A stretch of DNA of 64,000 nucleotides from Polyangium spumosum (lineage in GTDB: Bacteria > Myxococcota_A > Polyangia > Polyangiales > Polyangiaceae), in the NCBI RefSeq assembly GCF_009649845.1, contig NZ_WJIE01000009.1, positions 96,685 to 160,684 of the forward strand, written 5' to 3'. Made by a program: the position numbers and the translations under genes. The notes under the pieces were generated by a model that saw only the letters and a program-made list of their open reading frames with translations, was not told the DNA's origin and ran no database searches. Positions 23,863-44,058 of the stretch are shown in pieces; positions within the stretch are counted from its first letter, which is position 1; each line of letters starts with the position of its first letter.

Positions 23863-23883
23863 GTCCGCGCGGAGGATACGAAC

Positions 23884-25386: not shown

Positions 25387-25492
25387 CGGGCTTCGCAGAT
25401 CGGTGTAGGGTGTAAATCATGGAGATCGCCGTCCCACGCGCGGATACTCGCGCGCGGGCGGCGATCATCGACGGGGACGCGGAGGATTTACG

Positions 25493-25987
25493 ATGGAAAC
25501 CAGCTTTTTGGAGATCGAGGGCGTCAAGGGCGAGAGCACGGCGGCGCAGGGCAAGGACAAGATCGAGGTCATGTCCTTCAGCCACGGCGTGGCGATGCCG
25601 CTGACGAGCGGCGCCTCGGCGAACGCGCGCGCGCACGGCCGCTGCGTGCATCAGGACTTCACGTTCAGCAAGTACCTCGACATCACCTCGCCGACGCTGA
25701 ACCTCAAGTGCAGCGGCGGCGACAACATCAAGAAGGCCGAGCTCACCGTCTTCCAGGCCGACAAGAACGACGGCGACATGGTCCTTTATTACAAGATCAC
25801 GTTCGAGGACGTGATCCTGACGAACATCTCGGTGAGCGGCGGCTCGGGTGGCCGTCCCATCGAGACGGTCACGTTCAACTACCGCAAGATCAAGTGGTCG
25901 TACGCCCAGCAGGGCCAGCCTTCGCCGGCGGGCAAGAAGGGCACGGCCGAGGCGGGCTGGACGCTCGAGGAGAACAAGAAGCTCTAA
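25493..25987 (+). CDS. hcp: Hcp (TssD) tube protein
   Basis: 164 aa; FLEIEGVKGEST...VMSFSHGV pattern typical of Hcp. Confidence 0.9.
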   Translation: METSFLEIEGVKGESTAAQGKDKIEVMSFSHGVAMPLTSGASANARAHGRCVHQDFTFSKYLDITSPTLNLKCSGGDNIKKAELTVFQADKNDGDMVLYYKITFEDVILTNISVSGGSGGRPIETVTFNYRKIKWSYAQQGQPSPAGKKGTAEAGWTLEENKKL

Positions 25988-26023
25988 CCCGAGGACGTAT
26001 TCTCGTCCCAGGGGAGCGACAGA

Positions 26024-26500
26024 ATGGCGAAGGCGTGGGGATCCACGAGCGCGGGCAGGGTTCCCCTGTTCGATCGGCTGATCGACGAGAACCCTGCTCA
26101 AAAACAGGAAGTGGTCCCCTATTGCACCCTCGACCGAGACGGGCTGCGCGCCTCCGTGGCCCGCGAGCTCGGTCGAATCCTCGGCACCCGCAGCCCCATC
26201 TCCGGCGACGAGGCCCTCTCCCGACCGCGCACGACCATCGATTACGGGTTGCCCGACCTCGAGCTCGGCGGCCGTGCGCTCGTGCCGGAGGAGCTGCGCC
26301 GCCTCGTGCGCCTCGTGCAGAAGACGATCGAGGCGTACGAGCCGAGGCTCCAGAACGTACGCGTGGAGATCAAGCGACGCGAGGACGCGCCGCCGCACGC
26401 GCGGCTCGTCGTCGCGCTCACGGCGACGCTCGTCACGGACGAGGTGCGTGAGCCCCTCTCGTTCGAGGCGCCGCTCGAAGCGAGCTCGGGGGCCGCATGA
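26024..26500 (+). CDS. tssE: type VI secretion baseplate protein TssE (gp25-like)
   Basis: 158 aa; gp25/GPW-like pattern (LFDRLIDENP...TIDYGLPDL). 4-nt overlap with tssF. Confidence 0.85.
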   Translation: MAKAWGSTSAGRVPLFDRLIDENPAQKQEVVPYCTLDRDGLRASVARELGRILGTRSPISGDEALSRPRTTIDYGLPDLELGGRALVPEELRRLVRLVQKTIEAYEPRLQNVRVEIKRREDAPPHARLVVALTATLVTDEVREPLSFEAPLEASSGAA

Positions 26501-28305: not shown

Positions 28306-29324
28306 AGGCCTGGCTCTTCGACGAGGGGCACGCCTTCGATTTTTATCAGGCCGTCTCCCTCCTCGAGCGCTGGCGCGAGGGCGACGCCGTCCCCGTCGGC
28401 GAGGGCTCCGATCCTTCACGCGAGGCCGTGCGGTTCTCGTCGAGCATCGCGCTCTCCTTCCCCGAGACCGACGTCGCGAAGATTCGCCCGCCGCACCGCG
28501 AGGGCCAGCCGGCGAAGATGCTCGTCAACTTCCTCGGCCTCGGCGGCGCCCTCGGCCCTCTGCCGCCGCCCATCGTCGAGTCGATCTTCATGCGCGCCGT
28601 CCGCGGCGACACCGCGGCGCGTGATTTCCTCGACATCTTCAATCACCGCCTCGTCTCCTTCGCTTATCGGATCCGCAAGGGCCACCGCGTCGGCCTCGGC
28701 GCCTCCTCGCCCGAGAAAGACGCCGCGGCGCGGCACCTCTTTTCGCTGCTCGGGCTCGGCTTTCGCGCGCTCGAAGGCCGCCTCGCGGTCCAGGATCGCG
28801 CCCTGCTCGAGCACGCGGCGAACCTCTCGAGCGAGAGGCGCTCGCTCGAGGGCCTCGTGGCCATCCTCCGCCGCCATTTTGGCGTCTCGATCGAGCCCAT
28901 CCCGCTCACCGGGGCGTTTCATCCCATCGAGGACGGTGATCGTACTGCGATCGGCCGCTCCGGCCAGAACCGCGCCCTCGGCCGCGACGCCTGCCTCGGG
29001 GGGCGCTTCTGGGATCAGGAGTCGACCTTCGACCTGCGCATCGGGCCGATGAAGCTCGACGAATTCCTTCGATTCCTCCCGGGCGGCGACGCGCTCGCGC
29101 CGCTCTGCTCCCTCGTGCGGTTTTATGCTGGCGCCCGATTCCACTTCGGCCTCGTCCTCGTGCTCGCCGAGGGCGAGGCGCCGCGGGCGGCGCTTGGTCG
29201 CCCTGGGCGCGCGCTCCTCGGCCAGATCGCGTGGCTCGGCGACGTGGGCAAGGTGGGCAGGAGGGACCGCGAGGTGCGTTTGTCCCGTGCGGCCATTCGG
29301 AAGGGGCTCGGGGAGGCTGGCTGA
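28269..29324 (+). CDS. tssG: type VI secretion baseplate protein TssG
   Basis: ATG at 28269, in frame with the 3' part of tracked ORF 26763..29324 (MAAHGWRKSPSVEAWLFDEGHAFDFYQAVSLLER...). TssG-like; overlaps tssF by 37 nt. The 5' 1.5 kb of that tracked ORF is an off-frame artefact inside tssF. Confidence 0.85.
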   Translation: MAAHGWRKSPSVEAWLFDEGHAFDFYQAVSLLERWREGDAVPVGEGSDPSREAVRFSSSIALSFPETDVAKIRPPHREGQPAKMLVNFLGLGGALGPLPPPIVESIFMRAVRGDTAARDFLDIFNHRLVSFAYRIRKGHRVGLGASSPEKDAAARHLFSLLGLGFRALEGRLAVQDRALLEHAANLSSERRSLEGLVAILRRHFGVSIEPIPLTGAFHPIEDGDRTAIGRSGQNRALGRDACLGGRFWDQESTFDLRIGPMKLDEFLRFLPGGDALAPLCSLVRFYAGARFHFGLVLVLAEGEAPRAALGRPGRALLGQIAWLGDVGKVGRRDREVRLSRAAIRKGLGEAG

Positions 29325-29377: not shown

Positions 29378-32300
29378 ATGACGACCGAAGACCAGAGCCA
29401 GGGCGCCACGGAGAGCATTCCGAGCAAGCTCGGGAAGTTCGCGCAGGAGCAGATCGACAAGGCCGAGGTCACGGTCACGAAGGGCGTCTCCACCGTCCGC
29501 GACTCCACGAACGGGATCATCGGCAAGGCCGAAGAGCAGATCCTCAAGCTCAACAAGGCCCTCTACGAGACCAAAAACGGCATCTCCTCCGGCATCGACA
29601 CGGCGATCAAGGAGACCGAAGGGCAGCTCAAGGGCATCACGCCCGAGCTCAAGAAGATGGGCGAGGACGCCATCGCGTCCGCGAAGTCGAAGCTCGACGG
29701 GCTCGTCGGCGAGGTCGAGGGCAAACTCGAATCGCAGAAGGACTCGCTCGTCACGACGGCGAAGGATCAGATCCAGAGCGCGGCCGACGCGGCGAAGGGC
29801 AAGATCGACGAGATCGGAGAGCTCGGCGAGGAGCAGGCGACGAAGGTCCTCGACGCGGTGAAGGCGCAGGCCGACACGGTCGAGCAGAAGCTCGGGGACA
29901 TCGCGGGCGAGATCGACGGCAAGATCGAGGCGATCGGCGACGACGTCCGGAGCAAGTTCGAGGCGGCGATCGCGAAGGTTCCCGATCACGACGGCGCCAA
30001 GGCCGAGATGTCGGCGAACATCGACGCCGTCGTGGGCGAGCTACGCGAGGCCACGAAGGGCTCGATCGATCAGGCGCGCGAGACGCTGAAGAGCCTCGTC
30101 CAGCAGACCGACGACACGATCAAGCAGACGATCGGCGACGTGCGGCGCGCGATCGGCGAGGTCCCGACCCGCATCAACCAGTGCGCGCAGGACATCCTCG
30201 CGAAGGTCGACGACGCCATCCAGAAGACGATCGACGAGATCGCGAACCTCGCGCGTGGTCTCGTCGCGCGCACGGCGGAGCTGCTCAACGAGGCGCTGCT
30301 CACGATCACGAGCACGATCGACAAACTGCTCGCCGACGGCTTCGCGCTCGTGCGGGGGATCAAGGCCGACCTCGATCGGCTGCTCGACCAACTGCTCGAG
30401 CAGATCCGCGACCTGACGCTCGGCACGCTCGAGGACGTGCGCAAGGCGGCGAACGAGCTTCTCGGCACGTTCGAGGCCGAATGCAAGAAGATCCTCCAGA
30501 CGATGGAGGACTCGGTCATCGTCTCGGTCGAGGAGCTCGGCGGCAAGATGAACGCCTCGATCAAGGCGCTCCAGGCCGACTTGAACCTCGAGGCGGACAA
30601 GATCGTCCGGGACCTCGTGGCGGAGGGCGCGAAGGGGCACGACGACGCGCTCGCGGACTTCATCAGCGCCGGTTATGAAGAGGACACCTCGGTCATCCCC
30701 AAGATCCGGGCCAAGGGCGAGGCTGCGATCAAGCAGATCGAGGCCAAGACCAAGGCGCAAGGGGAGAAGCTGATCAAGGACTTCGAGCTGCAAGCGACGC
30801 TCTTGAAGCCGAAGATCCAGGCGCAGGGCATCAAGGTCATCGCGCAGATCGCCGCGCTCGGACCGAAGCTCGCGATGCAGGCCATGCAGATCGCGACGAG
30901 CATCGCGTCGTCGATCAAGGACAAGGGCGAGGCGGTCAAGAAGACGTTCGAGGAGCTGCAATCGACGCTCGTCGACGCGATCACGAAGAAGATCCCCGAT
31001 TACCTCGAGAGCTGCAAGAAGCAGATCAAGGCCGCGGCGGACGCGCTCGTCGAGGCGGGCAAGACGTTCTACGAGAAGACGCTCGCCGACATCATGGGGG
31101 CGATCAAGGCGGCGGAGCAGCGGTTCAAGCAGCTCGCCTCCGAGATGAAGGACCTCATCGAGACGCAGGTGCTCGAGCTCGTGGCCTCCATTCGCCGGAC
31201 GGTGGAGACCTCGATCCAGCGCTTCAAGGACCTCGGCGCGGCGTTCGAGGACAAGACGAACGCGCTCGTGAACGACATCCCGGCGCGGATCCTCAAGCTG
31301 GAGCAGGTCGCGCGGACGGCGGTCGAGAGTCAGATCGCGCTCGCGCAGGGGCTCGCGAATGCGACGAAGGAGGACATCCTCCTCAAGGCGCGGACGGCGC
31401 TCGCGGAGATCAAGAAGGCGGCGTACGGGGTCACGGCGGGCATTTCGGGTGATCTGGGCGCATTGAAGGGGACGCTCGCCGCGATCGTGCCGGCGGGCGG
31501 GGGGCTCGACGCGGCGGGGGCGATCAACCTCGTGGTCTCGGGCGGGCTCGAGCAGATGGTCACGTCGGCGGCGAACGCGGCGTCCGCGGCGGTGACGGCG
31601 GGCGTGAACGCGGCCGAGGCCGTGAACAACGCGGCGGAGCAGGCGGCGGCCGCGATGGGGGCGGCGGGGTTCGAGGGCGCCTCGAAGGCATTGACGGACG
31701 TGCTGAACCAGCAAATGGGGGAGGTGCGGACGGAGGGCGAGAAGGCGAAAAACGTCATCGCCGCGGCGAAGGAGAAGACGATGGCGGTCGCCAAGGAGGC
31801 GAACGACGCGTGCTCCGAGGCGGCGGCGGCGGCGCAGGCCGAGGCGGCGAAGGTCGTGGAGGCCGCGCAATCGACGGGCGACGCGATCAAGGCCTCGGCG
31901 GACAACCTGACGAAGAGCCTCGAGAAGGCGAAGGAGATCGTCAAGGACGCCGGCAAGACCGCGATGCAATCGATGAAGGAGGCCCAGGACGCGCGCAAGG
32001 GCGGCGACGGCGCGCAGGCCGGCGCGGGGGCACAAGCCGGGGCGGCGGCAGGCGCGGACGCGGGTGGGGCGGACGCGGCGGCGGACGCGGGTGGCGCGGA
32101 GGCGGCGGCGGACGCGGGCGGGGCGGAGGCGGCGGCGGATGCGGGTGGCGCGGAAGCTCCGGCGGCGGAGGCGGCGGCTCCCGAGGCAGCGGCTCCCGAG
32201 GCCAAGGCAGAGGTTCCGGGCGCCAAGGCAGAGGTTCCGGGCGCCAAGGCAGAGGTTCCGGGCGCCTCGAAACCGGAAGCGGGCGCCGATGTAGCGGCGC

Positions 32301-33091
32301 CGGCCGTCCCGAAGGCGCCTCCGGGCGCCAAGGTGCCGGAAGCGGCCGCCAAGGTACCGGAAGCGGGCGCCAAGGTACCGGAAGCGGGCGCCAAGGTACC
32401 GGAAGCGGGCGCCGGTGTAGCGGCGCCGGCCGTCCCGAAGGCGCCTCCGGCCGCCAAGGTACCGGAAGCGGCTGCCAAGGTACCGGAAGCGGGCGCCAAG
32501 GTACCGGAAGCGGGCGCCGGTGTAGCGGCGCCGGCCGTCCCGAAGGCGCCTCCGGCTGCCAAGGTACCGGAAGCGGCCGCCAAGGTACCGGAAGCGGCTG
32601 CCAAGGTACCGGAAGCGGCTGCCAAGGTACCGGAAGCGGGCGCCAAGGTACCGGAAGCGGCTGCCAAGGTACCGGAAGCGGGCGCCGATGTAGCGGCGCC
32701 GGCCGTCCCGAAGGCGCCTCCGGCCGCCAAGGTACCGGAAGCGGGCGCCAAGGTACCGGAAGCAGCCGCCCCTGCGGCGGCGCCGGCCGTCCCGAAGGCG
32801 CCTCCGGCCGCCAAGGTGCCGGAAGCGGCCGCCAAGGCAGCGGTCCCGGGCGCCCCGGCGGCCGCCCCGAAGGCCCCCGAACCCCCGGCCGCGCCGGCCG
32901 ACGCCGCGCTCTTCGCCCCGAAGGCCGCGCCCGCGGCGCCCAAACCCCCGGCCGCGCCCGCGCCGCCCGCCGCTCCTTCCATGCCCGGCGCCGCGAAACC
33001 TCCCGCCGCGCCCGCCGCGCCCGCCGCCCCCAAGCCCGTCCTCCCCGGCGGCGGCAAATGGCCCGGCCCCGGCGGCAAGCCCGGCCCCTGA
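29378..33091 (+). CDS. large (1237 aa) Lys/Glu/Ala/Ile-rich all-helical protein of unknown function with C-terminal AKVPEA(A/G) tandem repeats and a Pro/Ala-rich tail; T6SS-operon-associated
   Basis: Starts 54 nt after the tssG stop on the same strand. About 900 aa of amphipathic-helix/coiled-coil-like sequence. Then about 25 perfect 8-aa repeats. Composition is atypical for this genome (high Lys/Ile). Confidence 0.75.
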   Translation: MTTEDQSQGATESIPSKLGKFAQEQIDKAEVTVTKGVSTVRDSTNGIIGKAEEQILKLNKALYETKNGISSGIDTAIKETEGQLKGITPELKKMGEDAIASAKSKLDGLVGEVEGKLESQKDSLVTTAKDQIQSAADAAKGKIDEIGELGEEQATKVLDAVKAQADTVEQKLGDIAGEIDGKIEAIGDDVRSKFEAAIAKVPDHDGAKAEMSANIDAVVGELREATKGSIDQARETLKSLVQQTDDTIKQTIGDVRRAIGEVPTRINQCAQDILAKVDDAIQKTIDEIANLARGLVARTAELLNEALLTITSTIDKLLADGFALVRGIKADLDRLLDQLLEQIRDLTLGTLEDVRKAANELLGTFEAECKKILQTMEDSVIVSVEELGGKMNASIKALQADLNLEADKIVRDLVAEGAKGHDDALADFISAGYEEDTSVIPKIRAKGEAAIKQIEAKTKAQGEKLIKDFELQATLLKPKIQAQGIKVIAQIAALGPKLAMQAMQIATSIASSIKDKGEAVKKTFEELQSTLVDAITKKIPDYLESCKKQIKAAADALVEAGKTFYEKTLADIMGAIKAAEQRFKQLASEMKDLIETQVLELVASIRRTVETSIQRFKDLGAAFEDKTNALVNDIPARILKLEQVARTAVESQIALAQGLANATKEDILLKARTALAEIKKAAYGVTAGISGDLGALKGTLAAIVPAGGGLDAAGAINLVVSGGLEQMVTSAANAASAAVTAGVNAAEAVNNAAEQAAAAMGAAGFEGASKALTDVLNQQMGEVRTEGEKAKNVIAAAKEKTMAVAKEANDACSEAAAAAQAEAAKVVEAAQSTGDAIKASADNLTKSLEKAKEIVKDAGKTAMQSMKEAQDARKGGDGAQAGAGAQAGAAAGADAGGADAAADAGGAEAAADAGGAEAAADAGGAEAPAAEAAAPEAAAPEAKAEVPGAKAEVPGAKAEVPGASKPEAGADVAAPAVPKAPPGAKVPEAAAKVPEAGAKVPEAGAKVPEAGAGVAAPAVPKAPPAAKVPEAAAKVPEAGAKVPEAGAGVAAPAVPKAPPAAKVPEAAAKVPEAAAKVPEAAAKVPEAGAKVPEAAAKVPEAGADVAAPAVPKAPPAAKVPEAGAKVPEAAAPAAAPAVPKAPPAAKVPEAAAKAAVPGAPAAAPKAPEPPAAPADAALFAPKAAPAAPKPPAAPAPPAAPSMPGAAKPPAAPAAPAAPKPVLPGGGKWPGPGGKPGP
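32200..32840 (+). repeat. intragenic perfect 24-bp tandem repeats (GCCAAGGTACCGGAAGCGGGCGCC...; about 25 copies, encoding AKVPEAGA/AKVPEAAA)
   Basis: Visible directly in the DNA; interspersed GVAAPAVPKAPPAAKVPEA variants. Likely copy-number variable. Confidence 0.85.
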
Positions 33092-33174: not shown

Positions 33175-33501
33175 GTGACCTCGAAGCTGGATCGTCACGC
33201 GCAGCAGCTCAGCGCGCTTGGCCATCCCGTTCGCCTTCAGATCCTGCGCTTCGTCGTGCAGGGGGGCGAAGGGGGGACGTCGGCGGGCGAGATCCAGGCG
33301 CATGTCGATCTGCCGGCGTCGACCTTGAGCCATCACCTGAAGCGGCTCGTCGAGGCGGGCCTGTTCACGACCCGCCTCGAAGGCACATTTCACTACTACG
33401 CCGCCGATTACGCGGCGCTCCTGGCCCTCACGGGTTACCTCTGGGAAGACTGCTGCAATCGTGGCAAAGGCGGCAAAGTCGTGAAGAGCGGCTGCTGCTG
33501 A
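33175..33501 (+). CDS. ArsR/SmtB-family metalloregulatory transcriptional repressor
   Basis: HTH region (LSALGHPVRLQILRFV...ASTLSHHLKRLVEAGL). Cys-rich C-terminus (CCNRG...SGCC), consistent with metal sensing. Confidence 0.85.
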   Translation: MTSKLDRHAQQLSALGHPVRLQILRFVVQGGEGGTSAGEIQAHVDLPASTLSHHLKRLVEAGLFTTRLEGTFHYYAADYAALLALTGYLWEDCCNRGKGGKVVKSGCC

Positions 33502-33566
33502 ACGGCCGCTTTTTTTGGGCCCCAAGGTTCGAGTTTTTTGGAAGCAAGAAGAAAAGGAGACTCCCC

Positions 33567-34070
33567 ATGAACGTCCTCAAGCCCCACGTGTCCCTGAACG
33601 TCACCAACATCGAGCAATCCGTGGCCTTTTACGAGAAGGCGTTCGGCGTCGCGGCGACGAAGCGGCGGGCCGGATATGCGAAATTCGATCTGCAGGTCCC
33701 CTCGCTCAACCTGACGATGCAGGAGGCCCCTCGCACGGGGATCAACGTCAGCCATTTCGGCGTGCAGGTCGCGAGCACCGAGGATGTCCTCGAAGCCAAG
33801 GCCCGCTTCGAGGCCCAGGGGCTGAAGACCCTCACGGAGGAGGAGACGTCTTGCTGCTACGCCGTGCAGGACAAGGTGTGGGTCGAGGATCCGGACGGCA
33901 ATTCGTGGGAGGTGTTCGTCGTGAAGGCGGACGCCGACGTGATGGGGACGTCCACGGCGCTGAACAAAGACGCGAGCGCGTGCTGCACGCCCGTCGGCCT
34001 CTCGGAGAAAAGCGAAGTGAAGAGCGAGGTCAAGCCGACGGCGTCGTCCTGCTGCGGCCCGAAGACCTGA
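33567..34070 (+). CDS. ArsI/CadI-family metalloenzyme (glyoxalase/VOC fold; C-As lyase or Cd-induced type)
   Basis: Strong resemblance to ArsI/CadI (LNVTNIEQSVAFYEKAFG...YAKF...SLNLTMQE...HFGVQVASTEDV...CCYAVQDKVWVEDPDGNSWEVF) with a C-terminal Cys-pair tail. Confidence 0.85.
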   Translation: MNVLKPHVSLNVTNIEQSVAFYEKAFGVAATKRRAGYAKFDLQVPSLNLTMQEAPRTGINVSHFGVQVASTEDVLEAKARFEAQGLKTLTEEETSCCYAVQDKVWVEDPDGNSWEVFVVKADADVMGTSTALNKDASACCTPVGLSEKSEVKSEVKPTASSCCGPKT

Positions 34071-34073
34071 GGC

Positions 34074-34463
34074 TCAAGGCACCTGCACGGTGACCTGCCC
34101 CGGGAACGAGATCTGAATCACCCCGCCCCACATACACATCAGCTTCGAGCTGTTGTTCAGCGCGGGCATGTTCGCCAGTAACACCGTCGGAGCACCCACG
34201 ATCCACGGCGCCGGCGTGTTCGGGATACACGGCATCGGCGTGAGCACCCCCATCGCCGCCGCCGTCGCCGCGGCCACCGTCGGGTTCGCCAGGCTCTGAC
34301 ACATCCCGAACGGCAGCACGTTCAGCATCGGCTTGCCGTCCATGATGTTCGCGAGTGGCCCCGGGGCGGTCATCGTCCGGTTTGCGGGCAGCACCGTGAG
34401 CGAGCTCGGCGCCACGCCGAAGCTGCATTGCATCATCGCCCCCATGCATACGTGCTGGCCCAT
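34074..34463 (-). CDS. DUF4280-family protein (PAAR-like T6SS spike-tip candidate)
   Basis: Internal Met start at 34463 (MGQHVCMGAMMQCSFGVAPSSLTVLPANR...TPMPCIPNTPAPWIVGAPTVLLANMPALNNSSKLMCMWGGVIQI), characteristic of DUF4280. Its start codon abuts the stop of the upstream MORN gene (ATG...TGA junction). The tracked ORF's first 27 codons are rejected. Confidence 0.8.
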   Translation of the reverse strand: MGQHVCMGAMMQCSFGVAPSSLTVLPANRTMTAPGPLANIMDGKPMLNVLPFGMCQSLANPTVAAATAAAMGVLTPMPCIPNTPAPWIVGAPTVLLANMPALNNSSKLMCMWGGVIQISFPGQVTVQVP

Positions 34464-34465
34464 CG

Positions 34466-35221
34466 TCAGCCTCCCGCGAGTTTGTTCACGATCTTGTCGA
34501 AGAAGGACGTCTCCTTCTCCTCGGACTTCGACTTCGGGAGGCACTTGTCGTCGTACTCGACCTCGCCGCGCTTCTCGCCGTCCTTGTACGTCGCCTTCGC
34601 CTTGAGCTTGCCGTTCACGTCGTAGCTGAAGGTGTCGCCTTGTTTCTTGCCGTCGTCGTAGGTGGCCCGCTCGCGCACCTCGCCGTCCGGGAAGTATTCG
34701 ATCACCTCCCCGTGCAGCTTGTCCGCCTTGTAGTGCGCTTTCCGCAGCGTATTGCCCTTGCCGTCGAGGAAAAGCGACTCCCCCTCGAGCTTGCCGTTCT
34801 TGTAGAACGAACGTACGACCTCGCCCCCCTGCTCGTCGAACGATTGAAACGGTCCGTTTTGCTTGCCCTTCTCGAAGAGCAACAACGTCCGCAGGCGCCC
34901 GTCCTCGTAGAGCCGCGTCGGCCCGTGTTGCTCGCCCTTCACGAACGTGACGACCTGCGAGAGCTTGCCGTTCTCGTCGAAGAGCTTCGTCTCGCCGTGC
35001 AGGAGGCCGTCCTCGAACGACGAGCGCTCGACCTCGCGCCCCTCCGGGTCGTACGTGATCGACAAACCGTGGAGTTTTCCCTTCTGATAACTCGCCCGGT
35101 GCGCGATCTGTTTTTCGGTCTCCCCGTACTGGACGAACTCGCCGTGCAGCGCGCCGTCTTCCATCTGGAACCGGGTGAGCAGCTTGCCGTTCTCGTCGCG
35201 CTCTTCGTGGTCGGTCGGCAT
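34466..35221 (-). CDS. MORN-variant (YwqK-like) repeat protein
   Basis: About 10 repeats of YxDGKLxGExxxYDENGKL, typical of the MORN_2/YwqK family. Between vgrG and the DUF4280 gene on the same strand. Confidence 0.8.
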   Translation of the reverse strand: MPTDHEERDENGKLLTRFQMEDGALHGEFVQYGETEKQIAHRASYQKGKLHGLSITYDPEGREVERSSFEDGLLHGETKLFDENGKLSQVVTFVKGEQHGPTRLYEDGRLRTLLLFEKGKQNGPFQSFDEQGGEVVRSFYKNGKLEGESLFLDGKGNTLRKAHYKADKLHGEVIEYFPDGEVRERATYDDGKKQGDTFSYDVNGKLKAKATYKDGEKRGEVEYDDKCLPKSKSEEKETSFFDKIVNKLAGG

Positions 35222-35234
35222 GAATGGCCTCGCC

Positions 35235-37235
35235 TCAGTTGATCTTCACCATGCCGCCCTTCAAGGTCAGCATGCCGCCGCCCTCCACGGCGGCCTGCGC
35301 GCCGCCCTTCGCCTTCAGCGCGATCGCGCCCTCGAGCGTCATGTTCGTCCCGCCCTTGGCCTTGAAATCGGTGCCGGCCTTGAGCGTCATCCCCGTCCCG
35401 CTCTCGGCCTTGAAGTCCGTGCCCGCCTTCATCGTGAAGGCCTGCTTGGCCTTGATCGTCACGCTCTTCGCCTCGATCACGAGGTCGCCGTCGACCTTGA
35501 TCGTGTAGTTCTTCGTCACCTTGTAATCGAGGTTCGCCTTGTTCGTGTGCGCCTCGTCCTTCGTGACCTCGAGCGTGCGTTTGCCCTTCACGGCGTGGAG
35601 CTCGTCGCCCTTGTCCACCTTGATCGTGCGGTTGCCCTTCGTGACGGTGAGCGTCTCGTCGCCCTCCTCGATCGTCACCTTCCGCTCGTTCTTGACGTTC
35701 ATCGCGACATCGTGGAGGACCTTCACGGTCCAGTCGTTCTCCACCTCGAAGAGCATGTCCTTCTGGGCGTGCGCGTAGAACTCCTCGTTATCCTTCTTGT
35801 CGTCGAAGCGCAGCTCGTTGCCCGCGTCGCCCTCCTTCGAGGAGCGGCTCAGGATCGTGCTCTTCGTCTGCATGTCCGGCAAACCGTAGGGCACCGTCTG
35901 CTCGGCGTTGTACACCGAGCCCGTCACGAGCGGCCGATCCGGGTCGCCGTCGATGAAGCTCACGACGACCTCCTGCCCGATCCGCGGCAAGAACCACGTG
36001 CCCCAGCTCTTGCCCGCCCAGGCCTGCACCACGCGCACGAAGCACGAGCTCTTGTCGTCCTTCGCGCCCTTGCGATCCCAGTGGAACTGGACCTTGATGC
36101 GCCCGTATTCGTCCGTCCACTGCTCCTCGCCGCTCTTGCCCACGACGACGGCCGTCTGCGTGCCCGGGATCGCCGGCTTCGGCGTGATACGCGGCGCGCG
36201 GTACGAGGTCTTCTTCGGGAACGCCTCGAAGGTATTCGTGTACCCCTCCTGGCTCGCCCGGTGCGAGACCGAGAGCAGCACCCAGTCGGTGTTCGCGTCG
36301 TCCCGATCATGCTCGTCGAGCTTGAACGCGTGCCCCGCCGTGAACGCGCGGCACGTGGACGTGCCCGCCAGACGCACGGCCCGCGCCTCCTCGGCCTCGA
36401 TGCGCAGCTTCGCCCGCGCGTCCCCCGGGCTCTTCTCGACGTGACCGCCCGGGTATTCGAAGAGCTCGAGCTTGCCCGATTCGCCCGCGACCTCCGCGAG
36501 GAGCGACGTGCTCGGCATCTCGAAGTTGTAATCCGTCGCCGCGTATTTGCCCGCGACGATCTCCTCCTCGAGCGTGCACTCGAGGACGGCGTCCTCGTCC
36601 GTCGACGTGGAGAACTGCTCGACGAAGCGCGCCTTGTCGAGGTTCGGGCACGCCGCGGCCGACGCGCTGTCGTCGGAGAGCACCATGACGTGCTTGCCGT
36701 CCTCGTGCGCGAAATAATAGTGGATGCCCTCGTCCTCCATGAGGCGCGAGACGAAATCGAGCGCGGTCTCCTGGTACTGCACGCAGTACGGGCGCGGCGT
36801 GTAGGAGCCCTTCAGCGAATCCTTGAAGTGCTCGCCCGACGAGAACCCGAGCTCCTGGAAGAGCTCCTTCAGGATGTCGGGCACGCTCTTCTCCTGGAAG
36901 ATGCGGCAATCGCTGGTCTTGCCGAGCAGCCATAACCACGGGTGCAGCTCCGCCCGGTAGCGCGTCTGCTTGCCGACCCGCCCCGCCTGGACGAACCGCG
37001 TGCAGATCCCGTGGATGAAGCGCGGCTTCTCCTTCGCCATGCCCCGCACGGTCAAGGTCACGCCCTTGCCGACGATCGCCTTGAAGTCGAGGGCCTTCTC
37101 CGGCGAGACGAGCTCGAGCTCGAAGCGGAACAGCCCCGAGATCCGCTCCTCCCCGTGCAGATCGACGAGGAGCACGGCGTCGGGTCCGAACGGCGTCGCG
37201 ATGCCGATGCCAAGTGTGCCCTGCGGATAAGGCAT
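35235..37235 (-). CDS. vgrG: VgrG (TssI) spike protein; no C-terminal effector extension
   Basis: 666 aa. gp27/gp5-like VgrG core (LFRFELELVS..., SVSHRASQEGYTNTFEAFP, WAGKSWGTWFLPRIGQEVVVSFIDGDPDRPLVTGSVYNAEQ). C-terminal gp5 beta-helix repeats (TLEVTKDEAHT...VTKNYTIKVDGDLVIEA...). Confidence 0.9.
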   Translation of the reverse strand: MPYPQGTLGIGIATPFGPDAVLLVDLHGEERISGLFRFELELVSPEKALDFKAIVGKGVTLTVRGMAKEKPRFIHGICTRFVQAGRVGKQTRYRAELHPWLWLLGKTSDCRIFQEKSVPDILKELFQELGFSSGEHFKDSLKGSYTPRPYCVQYQETALDFVSRLMEDEGIHYYFAHEDGKHVMVLSDDSASAAACPNLDKARFVEQFSTSTDEDAVLECTLEEEIVAGKYAATDYNFEMPSTSLLAEVAGESGKLELFEYPGGHVEKSPGDARAKLRIEAEEARAVRLAGTSTCRAFTAGHAFKLDEHDRDDANTDWVLLSVSHRASQEGYTNTFEAFPKKTSYRAPRITPKPAIPGTQTAVVVGKSGEEQWTDEYGRIKVQFHWDRKGAKDDKSSCFVRVVQAWAGKSWGTWFLPRIGQEVVVSFIDGDPDRPLVTGSVYNAEQTVPYGLPDMQTKSTILSRSSKEGDAGNELRFDDKKDNEEFYAHAQKDMLFEVENDWTVKVLHDVAMNVKNERKVTIEEGDETLTVTKGNRTIKVDKGDELHAVKGKRTLEVTKDEAHTNKANLDYKVTKNYTIKVDGDLVIEAKSVTIKAKQAFTMKAGTDFKAESGTGMTLKAGTDFKAKGGTNMTLEGAIALKAKGGAQAAVEGGGMLTLKGGMVKIN

Positions 37236-37348: not shown

Positions 37349-38191
37349 ATGACGTTCTTCCGGACGGGCCACGGTCTCTTCCAGTTCGGGAGGCCGAAGC
37401 GCCTCGACAGGCACGGGATCCTCTCGTTTTTGCGCGGCATCGCGCTCGATCGCCGCGGCATGCTGGAGCTGCGGCGTATGCTCGCCGAGGAGCTGCATCG
37501 CAGCTCGATCCACAACCTGCGCGACGATGTCGTGATCGAGCAGCTCGCGGAGCGGTACCTGCGCGGCTCGCTCACGCTCGTCCACGTGCGCCCGCCCGAC
37601 GTTGGGCTCGAGCTCGAAGGTTTCCTCGTCGAGGGCGCCGACGTCACGCCGCTCGTCGGCCCCAAGAACGAGGCCGGGGACCTGCGCCCCGCGCCCGAGG
37701 TCCCGCCGGAGTATCCCGTCCTCGCGCGGGTCGAGTCCGATCAGATCGTCGACTCCACGCTGAAGCTCTGCGCGAAGCTCGCGGACCTGCTCTTCGGGGC
37801 GTTTGGCCTGCAAAAACGCCCGTCGACCCTGGCGAAGGAGCTCGTGTTGCTCGCGGCCGAAGAGGCGAGCGGCGTGAAGCTCGCGAACACGAAGGTCGAC
37901 CTCGGCCTCGGCCTGCAGCTCCACCCGCAAGGGAAGGTCCTGCTGCCCGATCCGCAGGTGAAGGACGCGTACGTCGCCGCGGCGGCCGAGATCGCCGCGG
38001 GCCCGCGCCCGGCCGCGAAGGGCCTCATCGATCTGATGCTGCCGCTCACGCGGGTCGATACGAAGCGCCGCTTCGAAAACCCCGTCGGCGCCGGGCTGGT
38101 GAAGAGCGAGTCGGTCGAGGAAGCGGCCCCTCCGCCCGCGCCCGCGCCCGAGGACAAACCGGCGCCGAACCGCTGGATCTTCTCGCTCTGA
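37349..38191 (+). CDS. hypothetical protein (280 aa), divergent from vgrG
   Basis: Internal Met at 37349 (MTFFRTGHGLFQFGRPKRLDRHGILSFLRG...) with balanced composition and a Pro-rich C-terminus. The competing minus ORF 37058..38344 is Arg/Gly-rich junk. No recognisable domain. Confidence 0.5.
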   Translation: MTFFRTGHGLFQFGRPKRLDRHGILSFLRGIALDRRGMLELRRMLAEELHRSSIHNLRDDVVIEQLAERYLRGSLTLVHVRPPDVGLELEGFLVEGADVTPLVGPKNEAGDLRPAPEVPPEYPVLARVESDQIVDSTLKLCAKLADLLFGAFGLQKRPSTLAKELVLLAAEEASGVKLANTKVDLGLGLQLHPQGKVLLPDPQVKDAYVAAAAEIAAGPRPAAKGLIDLMLPLTRVDTKRRFENPVGAGLVKSESVEEAAPPPAPAPEDKPAPNRWIFSL

Positions 38192-38205: not shown

Positions 38206-38988
38206 TCAACGCACGACGCGTAACGCGCCGTCGACCTTCGCCACGTAGACGGGGATCTGGAGCTGCGAGCCGTCCTTGTCCGGCACCGTCTGGAGCAGCG
38301 GGCGCTTCGGCTTTCGCATGAGCTCCCAGATCCGGCCCTCGCACATCGAGACCGGCAGGATGTCCGTCGCCCCGAACGCGAGGTCCATCGGGCCCGGCAG
38401 CAGCTTGCCCTGCACGAACTCCACGAAGTCGTCGCGCATGCGCGCCTCCGTCTCGTAATACGCTTGCCCGAAATCGCGTATCTTCGGCGCGAACTCCTTC
38501 ACGAGCCCCACCACGTCCGACGCGGCGAAGAGGTCCCGCAGGCGCGTCGCGTAGGCGAGCAGCGGCTCCGGATCCTCGATCGGCTCCGCTTCCCGGAGGA
38601 GCTCGGGGAACGCGGGGCCCTCGTTGTCGAATTCGAACGAGAGCTGCAAAGGGATCGCCGGGACCTGCCCGGCGAGCGCTTTTTGTACGTCGATGGAGAG
38701 CACGACGTCGCCGGCCTCGTCCGGCGCCACGATGTCCCCGGCCTTGTACGCCGACACCGAGCCGGTGATGTCGATGTCGAGCGGCGAGCTCATCCCTTTC
38801 CGCGTGATCGTCGGGAGCGCCTGGATGCCGAGCACGTTCCCCTTGCCGACGAGGAGCTGGTTCACCGGCGGCGCCACGCTGATCGGCGCCCGCGCGTCCA
38901 CGGCGAGGAGCTGAAAGCCGTTCAGCGTGACCCGCGCGAGGCAGGCGCGCAGCGACAGGTTCAGGTGGAAGATCGGTTTGTCCTGCAT
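38206..38988 (-). CDS. hypothetical protein (260 aa), immediately downstream of the giant toxin gene; candidate immunity/adaptor
   Basis: Balanced composition; 4-nt gap to the upstream gene's stop. No signal peptide or known domain recognised. Confidence 0.6.
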   Translation of the reverse strand: MQDKPIFHLNLSLRACLARVTLNGFQLLAVDARAPISVAPPVNQLLVGKGNVLGIQALPTITRKGMSSPLDIDITGSVSAYKAGDIVAPDEAGDVVLSIDVQKALAGQVPAIPLQLSFEFDNEGPAFPELLREAEPIEDPEPLLAYATRLRDLFAASDVVGLVKEFAPKIRDFGQAYYETEARMRDDFVEFVQGKLLPGPMDLAFGATDILPVSMCEGRIWELMRKPKRPLLQTVPDKDGSQLQIPVYVAKVDGALRVVR

Positions 38989-38992
38989 GCGC

Positions 38993-41900
38993 TCACTTGC
39001 ACTTGTCCACGAGTTCCTTGCACGGATCGATGTAGCTGGCCGACATGATCTTATCGAGCTCCTTGTTCACGAAGCTCAGGAAGGTCTTGTCGTCGATCCA
39101 GTCGCGCGCCCAGTCGCGCGTGCCGATGATGTCGAGCCGCTGCCGGATGTCGTGCGCGAGCCCCTCGATCGAGCTCGAGTCGCGGAAGATGTCCTTGCGG
39201 GCGTCGATCTTCGCCGCGAGCGTCTGCGCGATCTTCTCGGTGGACCATTGCGTGTCCGGTGTCCACGCGCTCCCGGACTCCGTGAACACCCGGATGTTCA
39301 GCCCGTCGGTGAGTTTGTCCTCGAGGATCTCCTCGATCTGGCTCCGCGTGATGAAGGGGGCCGTGTAGGGCTCGTCCGGCCATTCGAAGTCCCCGAGGTC
39401 CTCGGCTTCGATGAACGTCTGCTGCGAGACGTGGTTGCCCAGCCAGCCGCCCGGGCCCACCGACGCCTTGATCTTCCCCGCGAGCCCCGTCCAGCTCATG
39501 GAGCTCTTCATCGAGAAGCCTTCCCGGCTGTGGATCTGGAGCTTCCCCTGGAATTCGAACCCGCTCTCCAGCGTGGCCTCGAATTCGACGCAGCTCCCTG
39601 CCTGGACACGCGCCCCCACGGCGCCCGCGATGCTCAAGGTGAACGGGATCGCGACGGTGGCGTCCACGCCCGGGCTGACGCGCTCGATCTCGTAGTTGAT
39701 GGAGACGCCCCCCTCGATCTTCGCGAAGAGCTGCGCCTTGAAGCTGCAGCTCGCGATCCCGACGCCGATCTCGGCGGAGGCCGAGAACAGGTTGAACTGG
39801 AAGATCAGCTTCGCCCCGGCGTACGCCCGTTCGTCCTTGTATTCCTTCTGCTGCCATTCGAGGTTGAAGACGCCCTGGAGGACCTGGAACTCCCACTGGG
39901 CATACCAGCCGATCTTGGGGACCGCGTCCTGGATGCCCTTCATGATCTTGAGCGCGTGCTGCACGAGCCCCACGATGCCCAGGATCGGCTGGATGACGTC
40001 GGCCGCGTTGACGAGCGACTTGCCATCCATCGTGATGGTGACGCCCTCCCCGAAGGGTTTTTTCTCCGCCCCCTTCTTGGGTTTTTCCCAGCCGGCTGGC
40101 TCCTCGAGCGACTCTCCTGCGTCGACCCACGCGAGGCCCTTGCTGCCGTCGGAGAGCGTGACCTCGTCGAGCTTCTCCCCGAGCTTCGAGCCCATCTTGG
40201 CGCTGCGCACCTTGGGCATTTTGATCGCGAGCGCGAGCTTGTTCGGCGCGTAGACCGCGATGGTGAGGGGCTTTTCGAATCCCTCGACCTTGTACTCCGT
40301 CGCCGCGGTGAAGGCCTTCCAGAACGTGGCGCCGAGGATGTTGTGGCCCAGGGTGCCCTTGAACGCGACCTTGACGTCGTATTGCGTGTAGCCCTCGCCC
40401 GCGGCCTTCCCCTGCACCGTGACCTTCTCGCCCCCGCGCGACACCGTGATCGCGCTCGGCGAAGGCTTCGCGCCGCCCCGGTAGAGGAGCGTCACCACGT
40501 CCTCGAGCGTCTGCGCGTCGGGGACCACCTCGAAGCGGGCCACGTTTTTCACGCGGCTCTTTCGGCTCGCGAGCTCGTGCGCGCAAAAAACGACGAGCTC
40601 GCTCTCCCCCGCGCCCGTCGTCGCCCCGCCCGACGTCGAGCCGGCCGTCTCGCCCTCCTCGGACGTCTCCTCCGTCGCCTCGTTCTCCGCCGGCGGCGCC
40701 TGCAAAAGCGAGAGCGTGCGCCAGTGCTCGATGAGGCCGATCGGGTGCAGGTGCCAGACCTTGTCCTTCGAGGGCAAACCCGCGCTCGATGCGTCTCCCC
40801 AGAAGCCGAGCTTCTTGATGTACTCACGCGTCGTCGCGAGCGACGCGTCGTCGAGGTTCCACGGCGGCCCCTTCAATCGATCGAGCCCCGGCACCTCGCC
40901 GGCCCACTCCGTCGGATGCAGGCACGCGATCCGCCGCAGCTTCTCGGCGATCGCGGGGTCCTTCAAGGCCGCCTTGATCTCCGCCGCCGAGACCTTCCCG
41001 TCCTTGTTCTCGTCGACGAGCCCGAGCAGGCTCGGCGCGTCGCAGAGCCCATCCTGGCTGAATTTGCCGGGCTCCTCGATCCGCTGCCAGCGCGGCCAGT
41101 CGTACGCGAAGAGGACCTTCGTATCCTTGTCGACTTCGATCCAGCCCTTCCCCCCGCCGAAATCCACCTCTTGCCAGACCTTGCCCTCCTTGTCCTTGAA
41201 GACCCGCGCGTCCGAGGCGGGCAAGATCTCGGTGAAGATCTCCGCCGCGTTCGAGCCCGCCCCGTCCTCGAACACGACCGCGCCGTCGGGTTTTTCCTTG
41301 GAAAGGACGGGCAACGCGCTCTTCAGCGTGTAGCGCGACGTCTTGCCGTCCCAGTCCCCGAGCAGCTCGCGCTTCGTCCAGCCCGTGCGTTTCTCCTGCT
41401 CCGCTTTCGGGAGCACATACCGCACCTGGCGGTCGCTCTCGCCCTTCTGCGCGACCCAGTACACCTTCGCGCCCTTCGGCGCGTTGATTTCAATCGTCGC
41501 GCCCCCGCCGGGCTCGGTCGTGAGCGTCGCGAGTGGCGCCGCCAGCGTATACGCCGCGCTCCCCTGGTCATACGCCCCGAGCAGCTCGCGCTTCGTCCAT
41601 CCCACGGCCTCGCTGCAAGCGACCTTGCGCAGATCGCCGGGCGGCTGCTCCACGAGGCTGAGGCGTGCGCCGGCGGGCCAGTCGACCTTCACCTCGGGCG
41701 GCGTGACGTTCTTGCGTGTCTTGAACTTCGTGCCCGCCGCGATCTGCAAGAGCCCCGGGCCGCCCTTGTCGCCCTTGGGGTTCTTCATGAACTCGACGTC
41801 GCCCGTCAGCACCTCGAAATGGGTCGTCGCCGGCCGCGTGAAGAACACGCCCGGATACCCGAGAATGGCGCCCGCCGTGACCGGGATCTTGCACGCGACC

Positions 41901-44017
41901 ACCTGATCGAACTTCTCGGGCTCGAGCTTGCACTCGTATTTGATGTTCGGGTCGCCCTCGCCGCCCACGTAGACCCAGCCGCCGCCCGAGAGCTCGTGCC
42001 AGCCGGTCCCGATCTTCCCCCCGGGCGCGACCGCGTTCGGGTCCTTGAAGCTCACCTCCTCGCCGAGCTTGGCCACCCGCAAGACCTTGCTCCCCCGGCC
42101 CGTCTCGCGCACGTTGAGCCCCCCCGAATCCTCGGTGGTCGCAATCGTGAACTTGTGCTTCTTGAACATCACGGGCGGGTTCTTCTTCTGCGCGTCGGTG
42201 TACTCCTCGAAAGGCAAGAGGTGCATCACCAGCGAGAAGAGCTCGAGCTTCGCGCCCTTCGGCGTGTACCGCTCGTGCCGGACGAGCACGAAGCCATTCG
42301 AATACCGCATCGGCTCGCCCGCGAGCTCCACCTCGAGCGCCTTCTTGTTGATGCGATACGCCACGATGTCGCCGTCGGCGATGGCCTGGAGCGCATCCGC
42401 GCCCGCGTCGAGGTGCACGCCCCCGTGCCAGAAGTTGTTGGCCCCGATGGGGAAGAACCCGCCCTCGCCCCCCTCGTTCAGCGAATAATGGGCCTCGGCG
42501 TCCTTGCCGACGATCGGGAGGCGGATGCTCGCGCTCGCGCTCGCAGGCGTGAGGAAATCCCCCTCGACGAGGGTGTAAATGAGCGAACGCGTGCCGTCCT
42601 TGGCCGGCTTGCCGGAGAGCTCGTTCTGGAGCGTGCCCTTGATCGAGGTGTCCGCCTCGATCTTCTTGATGAAATCGACGTAGCTCTTGATCCCCGCGAT
42701 CACCTGGCAGCCCGCGGACCAGGCGCGGCTGCGGTCCGCGGCGACCAGGCCCGTGTCGCCGCCGTAATGGATGTTGATGTCGCCCGCGTCGTACGCCGTC
42801 GCGTGGGTGTCGCCGACCGCGCCGACCTGCTCCTCGTCGCCGACGAGCGCCGTCCGTACGGTCGGGTCCGGCCGGAGCGCGCGATAGTTCTTCCCGCTCA
42901 GGTCCTTCCCCGTCATGCCGTCCTTCAGGCTGACGTGTGTCCCGTACCGCGAGATCCCGTGATTGCCGAGCGCATACTTGTGTTGCCCGAGCAAGAGCAC
43001 CGACTGGCTGCCCTTGATCGTCCACTCCGTGGTGCACTGGTAGAGCGCGACCTTCTTCTGCCCCGCCGTCGTCTTGTAGACGAGGAACATGCAATCGTCG
43101 TACTTCGTGTTCGTGCTCTGGACCGGCTTCTTCTCCTTGTGATCGAAGCCGCGCGCCGCGAGCAGGTTCACGCGCCCGTTCTCGTCCTGGAAGTCGTACG
43201 CGCTTTTCCCCTCGTTGCCGAACCGCTTCTGCGCCCGCTTCCACACCTCGCGCAGGTGGTCGTAGAGCACGTCCTCGGGCATCGTGGAGAGGTCGAACTG
43301 CGTCGTCGGCTCGCGATACACCACGAGCGGCGCGTCGTCGTCGTCGTCGTCCTCCGCCCCCGTGCCGCCGGCCTTCTTCAGGAAATCCGAGCGATCGAGG
43401 ATGCGCCAGTTGTACCCGCCGCGTTGCGCCACCGCGAACGAGCCGTCCGCGTTCCGGGGCTTCTGGTTCTTGAGGTTGGTATTGTCCCTCCAGTAATCGA
43501 GGTCGTGGATGAGCGCGCAGAAGCCCGGGTAATCGTTGTCCTTGACGCAAGCGACGAGCCGCGGGTGCTTCGTCGAGAGGTCCCCGCGATACGCGAGGTC
43601 GACGAGCACCTCCTTCATCGGCGTCGGGTACTTCTCCCAGTCGCCGCCGTAGTCCGCGACCCTCGTCTTCGCCTTCTCGACGTAGGCGGGATAAATCTTC
43701 TGGTAGAGCGTCTTCGCGACGTCCTTCGAGATCGTCGGCAGGCTCGCGACGTTGTCCGCGACCCACTTCTTGGCCGCGTCCCCCTTCTTCCCCGCGCCAT
43801 TGCTCAGCTTCTCCGCGTCGGCCGCGGACACGCCCGCCGCGACGAGGTCGGCCTTGACCACCGCCTTCGTGCGGCCCCCCATGTCGTAACCGGCCCCGAG
43901 CGTCACCCCGGACGCGGCCGAATCGGGCCAATGTACCTCGAGGATGTCCTTGGTGTTGCCCCCCTCGACGGCGAACGTGAGCTCGGAGAAATGGGGGAAG
44001 ACGTGGGTGCCGCTCAT
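38993..44017 (-). CDS. giant (1675 aa) putative polymorphic toxin / T6SS cargo effector: lysozyme-like (GH24-like) N-terminal domain, EF-hand-like loop, hydrophobic beta-rich C-terminal domain
   Basis: ATG at 44017 (MSGTHVFPHF...), an internal Met of tracked ORF 38993..44140. N-terminal region resembles phage lysozyme (E...D...T spacing, then KEVLVDLAYRGDL...LVACVKDNDYPGFCALIHDLDYW). EF-hand-like loop DENKDGKVSAAEIKAAL at about 40955-41014. Duplicated GWTKRELLG modules. C-terminal Gly/Ala/hydrophobic segments. Lys-rich, lower-GC composition than neighbours. Confidence 0.75.
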   Translation of the reverse strand: MSGTHVFPHFSELTFAVEGGNTKDILEVHWPDSAASGVTLGAGYDMGGRTKAVVKADLVAAGVSAADAEKLSNGAGKKGDAAKKWVADNVASLPTISKDVAKTLYQKIYPAYVEKAKTRVADYGGDWEKYPTPMKEVLVDLAYRGDLSTKHPRLVACVKDNDYPGFCALIHDLDYWRDNTNLKNQKPRNADGSFAVAQRGGYNWRILDRSDFLKKAGGTGAEDDDDDDAPLVVYREPTTQFDLSTMPEDVLYDHLREVWKRAQKRFGNEGKSAYDFQDENGRVNLLAARGFDHKEKKPVQSTNTKYDDCMFLVYKTTAGQKKVALYQCTTEWTIKGSQSVLLLGQHKYALGNHGISRYGTHVSLKDGMTGKDLSGKNYRALRPDPTVRTALVGDEEQVGAVGDTHATAYDAGDINIHYGGDTGLVAADRSRAWSAGCQVIAGIKSYVDFIKKIEADTSIKGTLQNELSGKPAKDGTRSLIYTLVEGDFLTPASASASIRLPIVGKDAEAHYSLNEGGEGGFFPIGANNFWHGGVHLDAGADALQAIADGDIVAYRINKKALEVELAGEPMRYSNGFVLVRHERYTPKGAKLELFSLVMHLLPFEEYTDAQKKNPPVMFKKHKFTIATTEDSGGLNVRETGRGSKVLRVAKLGEEVSFKDPNAVAPGGKIGTGWHELSGGGWVYVGGEGDPNIKYECKLEPEKFDQVVACKIPVTAGAILGYPGVFFTRPATTHFEVLTGDVEFMKNPKGDKGGPGLLQIAAGTKFKTRKNVTPPEVKVDWPAGARLSLVEQPPGDLRKVACSEAVGWTKRELLGAYDQGSAAYTLAAPLATLTTEPGGGATIEINAPKGAKVYWVAQKGESDRQVRYVLPKAEQEKRTGWTKRELLGDWDGKTSRYTLKSALPVLSKEKPDGAVVFEDGAGSNAAEIFTEILPASDARVFKDKEGKVWQEVDFGGGKGWIEVDKDTKVLFAYDWPRWQRIEEPGKFSQDGLCDAPSLLGLVDENKDGKVSAAEIKAALKDPAIAEKLRRIACLHPTEWAGEVPGLDRLKGPPWNLDDASLATTREYIKKLGFWGDASSAGLPSKDKVWHLHPIGLIEHWRTLSLLQAPPAENEATEETSEEGETAGSTSGGATTGAGESELVVFCAHELASRKSRVKNVARFEVVPDAQTLEDVVTLLYRGGAKPSPSAITVSRGGEKVTVQGKAAGEGYTQYDVKVAFKGTLGHNILGATFWKAFTAATEYKVEGFEKPLTIAVYAPNKLALAIKMPKVRSAKMGSKLGEKLDEVTLSDGSKGLAWVDAGESLEEPAGWEKPKKGAEKKPFGEGVTITMDGKSLVNAADVIQPILGIVGLVQHALKIMKGIQDAVPKIGWYAQWEFQVLQGVFNLEWQQKEYKDERAYAGAKLIFQFNLFSASAEIGVGIASCSFKAQLFAKIEGGVSINYEIERVSPGVDATVAIPFTLSIAGAVGARVQAGSCVEFEATLESGFEFQGKLQIHSREGFSMKSSMSWTGLAGKIKASVGPGGWLGNHVSQQTFIEAEDLGDFEWPDEPYTAPFITRSQIEEILEDKLTDGLNIRVFTESGSAWTPDTQWSTEKIAQTLAAKIDARKDIFRDSSSIEGLAHDIRQRLDIIGTRDWARDWIDDKTFLSFVNKELDKIMSASYIDPCKELVDKCK

Positions 44018-44058
44018 GATGCCACCGGACGTGGGATGATACACGTCGGCGCGGCGGA

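Follow-up and report, generated by a model that had tools for sequence, protein, structure and literature searches.

What does a protein made solely of MORN repeats do between the spike and the spike tip of a type VI secretion system (T6SS)? The question is raised by a locus of Polyangium spumosum, located in a window of 64,000 nucleotides (contig NZ_WJIE01000009.1, positions 96,685 to 160,684 of the forward strand), whose first letter is position 1 in the coordinates given below. On the minus strand of this window, a vgrG (tssI) gene coding for a spike protein of 666 amino acids (aa) at 35235-37235 is followed by a gene encoding a 251-aa MORN_2-repeat protein (34466-35221) and by a gene encoding a standalone DUF4280 protein of the PAAR-like family (129 aa, 34074-34463). 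A first-pass annotation described this gene order and proposed that the MORN protein may be a new T6SS adaptor or chaperone, possibly linking a giant toxin encoded nearby to the spike. Sequence comparisons reported here identify the MORN protein as a homologue of TseF from Pseudomonas aeruginosa, and as a member of a family already described to bind VgrG. The locus is probably the Polyangium counterpart of vgrG3-tseF-PA2375 in the H3-T6SS of P. aeruginosa, with a MORN solenoid that would be bound to the spike, made with the tip, and released together with the spike.

Homology of the MORN Protein to TseF

In BLASTP, the MORN protein of the window aligned with P. aeruginosa TseF (PA2374) at 33% identity over 125 aa (E 1e-18). 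When 15 spike-linked MORN proteins were combined into a profile, hhalign matched it to TseF with a probability of 99.5% (E 5.9e-23), in a co-linear register that places TseF residues 16-160 on residues 89-231 of the window protein. The Polyangium protein begins with three repeats that TseF lacks; its next six repeats and its C-terminal tail run co-linear with those of TseF. This tail, located after the repeats, is conserved in spike-linked MORN proteins; it reads SFFDKIVNKLAGG in the window protein, AILDRLQKLVRGS in Rugamonas (nearly identical in Duganella), and SILRRLETMVRGQ in Limnohabitans. All spike-linked members tested, TseF included, scored above the Pfam threshold for MORN_2, TseF with 55 bits. 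TseF was reached by a tblastn search of plasmid records with DUF4280; a database of 5.8 billion proteins, searched with the MORN protein both as a single sequence and as a profile, yielded generic MORN_2 repeat proteins, and neither TseF nor members of VgrG-MORN-DUF4280 triads.

MORN_2 (Pfam, 3.6e-21) is the sole family above cut-off in the 251-aa protein in Pfam and NCBIfam, and the same two collections gave no match to the adaptor families DUF4123 (Tap-Tec), DUF1795 (Eag), or DUF2169. The first-pass annotation was therefore right that the protein falls outside these adaptor classes; its novelty does not hold, given the homology to TseF and a layout already known from P. aeruginosa and Paraburkholderia phymatum. 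An AlphaFold2 model of the protein (mean predicted local distance difference test, pLDDT, 93.6) is all-beta, with 19 beta-strands across residues 1-223 that form about 8.5 beta-hairpin repeats, then a disordered linker and a short C-terminal helix (residues 240-248). The best Foldseek matches of the model were MORN1 proteins and junctophilins, and sequence searches found no bacterial relative with a solved structure. A signal peptide is not visible at the N-terminus (MPTDHEERDENG). As modeled, the protein is a cytoplasmic, all-beta MORN_2 solenoid lacking a signal peptide. MORN repeats are protein-protein interaction modules (PMC7725318).

Organization of the Three-Gene Set

The GC content of the window is about 70%, and it contains many spurious open reading frames (ORFs), from which real genes were picked out by GC content at each codon position. 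Third-position GC is 0.90-0.95 for the vgrG, MORN, and DUF4280 genes, typical of coding sequence in this window. A 156-aa ORF with a GTG start (34074-34544) was rejected as an over-extended version of the DUF4280 gene. As had been annotated, the three genes follow one another in the order vgrG, MORN, DUF4280. The gaps between them measure 13 and 2 nt. The vgrG stop codon (TGA, 35237-35235) is followed by a spacer containing GAGG, as read from the sequence (35222-35234), and then by the ATG of the MORN gene (35221). The TGA of the MORN gene (34468-34466), the dinucleotide CG, and the ATG of the DUF4280 gene (34463) form the second junction, which reads CATCGTCA on the plus strand and confirms the adjacency of stop and start noted earlier. 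Within the MORN gene, close to its 3′ end, a Shine-Dalgarno-like GGGAGG (34470-34475, minus strand) lies 6 nt 5′ of the DUF4280 ATG. Together, the 2-nt gap and the internal motif suggest that the MORN and DUF4280 genes are likely translationally coupled. A scan for promoters and terminators found no promoter-like sites, and terminator-like sites at chance level.

The VgrG protein matches Phage_GPD (4.6e-97), Phage_base_V (8e-16), and Gp5_trimer_C (1.7e-23) in Pfam, and TIGR03361 (1e-181) in NCBIfam. Its Pfam domains reach residue 543, from where beta-helix repeats extend to the C-terminal end (...GGMVKIN). Neither Pfam nor NCBIfam shows a domain after the beta-helix, in agreement with the earlier observation that this VgrG carries no C-terminal toxin or other effector domain. 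The nearest relatives in the databases are other Polyangium genomes, where VgrG is 93-95% and DUF4280 94-100% identical.

Assignment of the 129-aa protein to the PAAR-like family, and of the locus to a spike-tip module, was also borne out, with a Pfam match to PF14107 (DUF4280) of 1.2e-35; the NCBIfam IglG-like model matched at 4e-17, below the family cut-off. Cysteines C6, C13, C55, C79, and C110 are invariant in an alignment of 32 sequences, and a four-cysteine signature has been described for DUF4280 and PAAR-like proteins (PMC5349215). The AlphaFold2 model of this protein has a pLDDT of 33.7 and derives from a shallow alignment in which all sequences are at least 74% identical; sequence and profile searches gave no significant match in the PDB. 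A PAAR-like fold is predicted from family membership, the five invariant cysteines, and published modeling of the family (PMC5014421; PMC5349215). One PDB entry, 9jg8_B ("DUF3289 family protein"), aligned through residues 7-114 over the full length of the DUF4280 profile at a non-significant E of 4.4; its N-terminal domain could be a solved DUF4280-like domain.

Comparison With Known Systems

TseF is a 178-aa protein of P. aeruginosa with three predicted MORN motifs, whose gene adjoins vgrG3 where the H3-T6SS cluster ends (PMC5379069). It was pulled down with VgrG3 and VgrG1b, and found in culture supernatants after H3-T6SS-dependent release; its homologues elsewhere mostly co-localize with VgrG (PMC5379069). 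By binding the Pseudomonas quinolone signal (PQS), FptA, and OprF, TseF delivers iron bound to outer membrane vesicles, and it was published as a secreted VgrG-binding effector with extracellular partners, not as an adaptor (PMC5379069). A further gene of the H3 locus, PA2375, encodes a DUF4280 protein (PMC7376260). The P. aeruginosa record (L088) contains tssH, a hypothetical gene, an M91 peptidase gene, tssI, a "YwqK family antitoxin" gene with a product of 178 aa, and DUF4280. The same three families are therefore adjacent at the edge of a T6SS cluster in P. aeruginosa, as vgrG3 (PA2373), tseF (PA2374), and PA2375, and in Polyangium, and in both a gene encoding only MORN_2 repeats lies directly 3′ of vgrG. 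The proteins differ in size, with 178 aa for TseF and 251 aa for the Polyangium MORN protein. In the Polyangium window, the T6SS core cluster (tssA, tssB, tssC, hcp, tssE, tssF, and tssG; 22118-29324) lies on the plus strand, convergent with the three-gene set.

A similar arrangement has been mentioned for Paraburkholderia phymatum, where vgrG (Bphy_5985), a "YwqK family antitoxin" gene (Bphy_5986), and a PAAR-like gene (Bphy_5987) were described with no function assigned (PMC8356804). In this T6SS-b locus (L089), the triad is on one strand as in Polyangium, with proteins of 641 aa (VgrG), 240 aa (MORN), and 128 aa (DUF4280); DUF4280 is 68% identical to that of Polyangium, and the MORN protein about 27%. 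In the literature searched, the TseF paper alone connects MORN proteins with contractile injection systems, and no paper treats TseF or MORN proteins and DUF4280 as a pair. The Francisella protein IglF is not known to be a MORN protein. IglF is the partner of a DUF4280 tip protein, IglG, and is encoded near it, a likeness to the MORN-DUF4280 pair; IglG binds IglF through an N-terminal helix, an extension that the Polyangium DUF4280 protein lacks (PMC5349215). A further parallel in arrangement is the DUF2169-DUF4150/PIPY-VgrG set, in which an accessory gene, coding for a chaperone of the tip, is likewise linked to VgrG and a non-canonical PAAR-like tip (PMC11883445); families and folds are unrelated in both pairs (DUF2169 vs. 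a MORN solenoid; DUF4150 vs. DUF4280). This set serves as a model of the kind of work an accessory protein linked to a tip could perform.

Distribution of the MORN-DUF4280 Pair

A DUF4280 scan of one genome per species returned more than 576 relatives, and the best 80 loci (L008-L087) were examined. Neighboring genes were classified by tblastn, Pfam, and an iterated MORN_2 repeat hidden Markov model, a model built from the window protein alone having proved too narrow. These best 80 DUF4280 proteins come from many phyla and are 66-100% identical to the Polyangium protein. VgrG, MORN, and DUF4280 genes occur together on one strand in 28 of the 80 loci, from Polyangium, other Polyangiaceae, Minicystis, other Polyangia, Duganella, Rugamonas, an Oxalobacteraceae isolate, Limnohabitans, Stellaceae, Pyrinomonadaceae, and Melioribacteraceae. 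In one more locus, truncated by the contig edge, a MORN gene precedes DUF4280. The MORN stop codon overlaps or abuts the DUF4280 start in many of the triad loci, distant lineages included, and the two overlap by 1 nt in Duganella, Rugamonas, Limnohabitans, and other loci. Between Minicystis and Polyangium, identity is 46% for the MORN protein and 80% for DUF4280, the MORN protein evolving faster.

In 16 loci from Firmicutes (Paenibacillus, Brevibacillus, Cohnella, and metagenome-assembled genomes of Bacillota), a different MORN protein lies directly beside DUF4280, which brings the loci with an adjacent MORN-type protein to 45 of 80. The Firmicutes protein has approximately 510-590 aa, is membrane-anchored, and belongs to the canonical MORN family PF02493. 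In Brevibacillus (L034), the MORN-DUF4280 pair adjoins genes for Pvc16_N, an AAA ATPase, and eCIS_core, and thus lies in an extracellular contractile injection system (eCIS) locus. DUF4280 is 71-75% identical to the Polyangium protein in Firmicutes loci L021, L025, L027-L029, L034, L036, L049-L051, L059, L064, L079, and L084, most of which also carry a HAMP/cyclase-like protein of about 935 aa. Proteins of the eCIS_core family (DUF4157) are also encoded 3′ of DUF4280 in Acidobacteriota T6SS loci (9873-10277 in L023, 3229-3573 in L024, and 9060-9404 in L062). They share about 50% sequence identity with the Brevibacillus eCIS_core, which hints at cargo common to T6SS and eCIS.

The standalone DUF4280 protein of 128-129 aa is unusually conserved across Myxococcota, Acidobacteriota, Pseudomonadota, metagenome-assembled genomes related to Bacteroidota, and Firmicutes, an indication of very strong constraint, of recent horizontal spread, or of the two combined.

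Overall, the known spike module vgrG-tseF-DUF4280 extends to myxobacteria, and the automatic name "YwqK family antitoxin" is misleading and is corrected here. The pairing of MORN with DUF4280 is kept in lineages without PQS, apparently also in Firmicutes (with eCIS genes at one Brevibacillus locus), and the role of TseF in iron uptake therefore cannot account for retention of the pair. This breadth beyond the quinolone and iron role of TseF hints at a general tip-accessory function. It is this unexplained breadth of the association, more than the Polyangium locus itself, that makes the finding of interest.

Proposed Function and Alternative Explanations

In the explanation that we favor, VgrG is the spike, devoid of an effector domain, and the DUF4280 protein, a member of the PAAR-like family, its putative tip. 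The MORN protein would be made together with the DUF4280 protein, as suggested by the 2-nt stop/start junction and the internal Shine-Dalgarno motif. By analogy with the TseF experiments, it would bind the VgrG spike directly, with no separate adaptor, and exit the cell with the spike upon sheath contraction. Family assignment and synteny are observed features of the locus; VgrG binding and export would carry over from TseF.

Several points weigh against this explanation. All functional inference for the MORN protein comes from TseF, a homologue of 28-33% identity. Repeat proteins also align in several registers in BLASTP, so that orthology with TseF, as opposed to mere family membership, rests on co-linearity, the common tail, and synteny. 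The DUF4280 gene is convergent with tseF in P. aeruginosa, whereas in Polyangium it is co-directional and apparently coupled with the MORN gene. Furthermore, a MORN neighbor is missing from 35 of the 80 DUF4280 loci, where the upstream neighbors include PP2C phosphatases (eight loci), VgrG itself (L023), unrelated genes, and one DUF4123-like protein, judged by eye only. Lastly, the extracellular role of TseF cannot be assumed for Polyangium, because the partners PQS, FptA, and OprF are Pseudomonas-specific. PQS production is not known from the myxobacterial host.

Some of these points recur when the MORN protein is considered mainly as a dedicated chaperone or accessory of the tip, which would keep DUF4280 or VgrG-DUF4280 secretion-competent, in analogy to DUF2169 for DUF4150/PIPY. 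A chaperone or adaptor role toward the tip itself is the main rival reading, judged less likely than the one favored above; under it, co-secretion of TseF and its role with iron and PQS would be secondary or lineage-specific. The adjacency of a MORN-type protein to DUF4280 in more than half of the best loci, across phyla and in T6SS as well as Firmicutes loci (one with eCIS genes), is consistent with this reading, as are the stop/start coupling or overlap that recurs in distant lineages, and the operon itself, in which Pfam shows neither a toxin domain nor an immunity gene. DUF4280 proteins, PA2375 included, could not be purified in soluble form on their own (PMC5014421), and both the DUF2169-PIPY precedent (PMC11883445) and the use of MORN repeats in protein-protein interaction (PMC7725318) point the same way. 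Moreover, variation in the neighboring effector cassette is not mirrored in the MORN protein, as described below. Against a tip chaperone stand the 35 loci without MORN, among them L023, where VgrG is directly followed by DUF4280, and the eight with PP2C upstream, together with the faster evolution of MORN relative to DUF4280 in the Minicystis comparison and the presence of TseF in supernatants with reported extracellular partners (PMC5379069). With a similar degree of doubt, the idea may be widened, such that MORN-type proteins, TseF being one of them, would partner DUF4280 tips generally across contractile injection systems, as chaperones or adaptors that hold the insoluble tip, or its complex with VgrG, ready for loading, or that tether it. 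This role would then extend across T6SSs of several Gram-negative phyla and the DUF4280 loci of Firmicutes, the PQS and iron activity of TseF being perhaps a Pseudomonas-specific addition. If the MORN protein were indeed a tip accessory, it would provide a DUF4280 counterpart of the DUF2169-PIPY chaperone system, and the mechanism of TseF would need a second look.

Two other roles were rejected. The first-pass annotation had tentatively linked the MORN protein to the giant toxin, an ORF on the minus strand (38993-44140; 1715 aa) with a pesticin/lysozyme-like domain at residues 73-204 (Pfam). That an adaptor of this kind would load the toxin onto the VgrG/DUF4280 spike is improbable, even though the toxin gene is on the vgrG strand, about 1.8 kb upstream, the MORN gene occupies a position often taken by adaptors, and the order toxin, 260-aa gene (p260), 280-aa gene, VgrG, MORN, DUF4280 recurs in L001, L005, L008, and L011. 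The toxin is not contiguous with the vgrG-MORN-DUF4280 operon, however, since a plus-strand gene of 280 aa (37349-38191) separates the toxin/p260 unit from vgrG. In addition, in P. jinanense and relatives (L003, L004, and L010), the place of the cassette is taken by a gene in the opposite orientation, which encodes a 1295-aa PG_binding_1/Peptidase_M74 protein, only 41% identical to toxin residues 54-623, and the 260-aa gene is absent; the triad itself is found in many phyla beside unrelated neighbors. Across Polyangium, the MORN protein is 85-89% identical, at 87-88% in the three loci with the replaced cassette vs. 85-88% in those with the same toxin type. An effector-specific adaptor would be expected to co-vary with its effector, which the MORN protein does not, and a toxin-MORN link is unlikely given the intervening opposite-strand gene and the exchange of the cassette beside a nearly constant MORN protein. 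A YwqK-type immunity protein or antitoxin against an unrecognized toxin is very improbable. NCBI names homologues "toxin-antitoxin system YwqK family antitoxin," and B. subtilis YwqK is presumably of the MORN_2 type, given that these MORN_2 homologues bear its name. The Polyangium protein also appears cytoplasmic, with no visible signal peptide, as an immunity protein could be. A list of LXG toxin/antitoxin pairs includes ywqJ-ywqK of B. subtilis (PMC8321402). The YwqK name, though, stems from a common repeat type and not from a tested function, and while YwqK is the immunity protein of the LXG toxin YwqJ in a type VII secretion system locus, the Polyangium MORN protein sits with a contractile-injection spike and has no cognate toxin. 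VgrG and DUF4280 lack toxin domains, and neither an LXG nor a deaminase gene was revealed in the operon by Pfam and NCBIfam. The neighbors of the MORN gene are vgrG and an unextended DUF4280 gene, in Polyangium as in the related triads. The partner conserved across phyla is a 128-129-aa DUF4280 protein without an extension, and TseF itself is a secreted VgrG-binding protein (PMC5379069). TseF-like binding to the spike remains the explanation that we favor.

Neighboring Genes

The 1715-aa toxin may be T6SS cargo, since large peptidoglycan hydrolases encoded beside vgrG make plausible effectors. The 260-aa ORF that follows the toxin gene on the minus strand (within 38206-44140) is a possible immunity gene; it accompanies the 1715-aa toxin type, and the toxin is modular and polymorphic. 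L005, L008, and L011 carry a toxin related to it together with the 260-aa gene. In L005, toxin residues 253-1715 are 69% identical, and the lysozyme-like part does not align. L001 (ENA ERZ25039597 contig_85825) is a metagenome contig with fragmented genes that point to assembly frameshift errors, and its DUF4280 is only 45% identical, though parts of its VgrG are 100% identical.

The 280-aa ORF, divergent from vgrG, has a third-position GC of 0.88, of the coding type, and no Pfam or NCBIfam match. In nearly every Polyangium locus it is conserved beside vgrG (55-86% identity), irrespective of the toxin cassette.

Directly 3′ of tssG, a plus-strand gene (29378-33091) encodes a highly repetitive 1237-aa protein, for which Pfam gave only Apolipoprotein and Baculo_PEP_C, both below curated cut-offs. 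Between the T6SS core and the DUF4280 gene, also on the plus strand (33175-34070), are genes for a 108-aa ArsR-like regulator and a 167-aa glyoxalase-fold protein whose tail is Cys-rich. As neither had a tblastn match in related Polyangium loci, the pair is probably an insertion; the stop codon of its glyoxalase-fold gene lies 3 nt from that of DUF4280.

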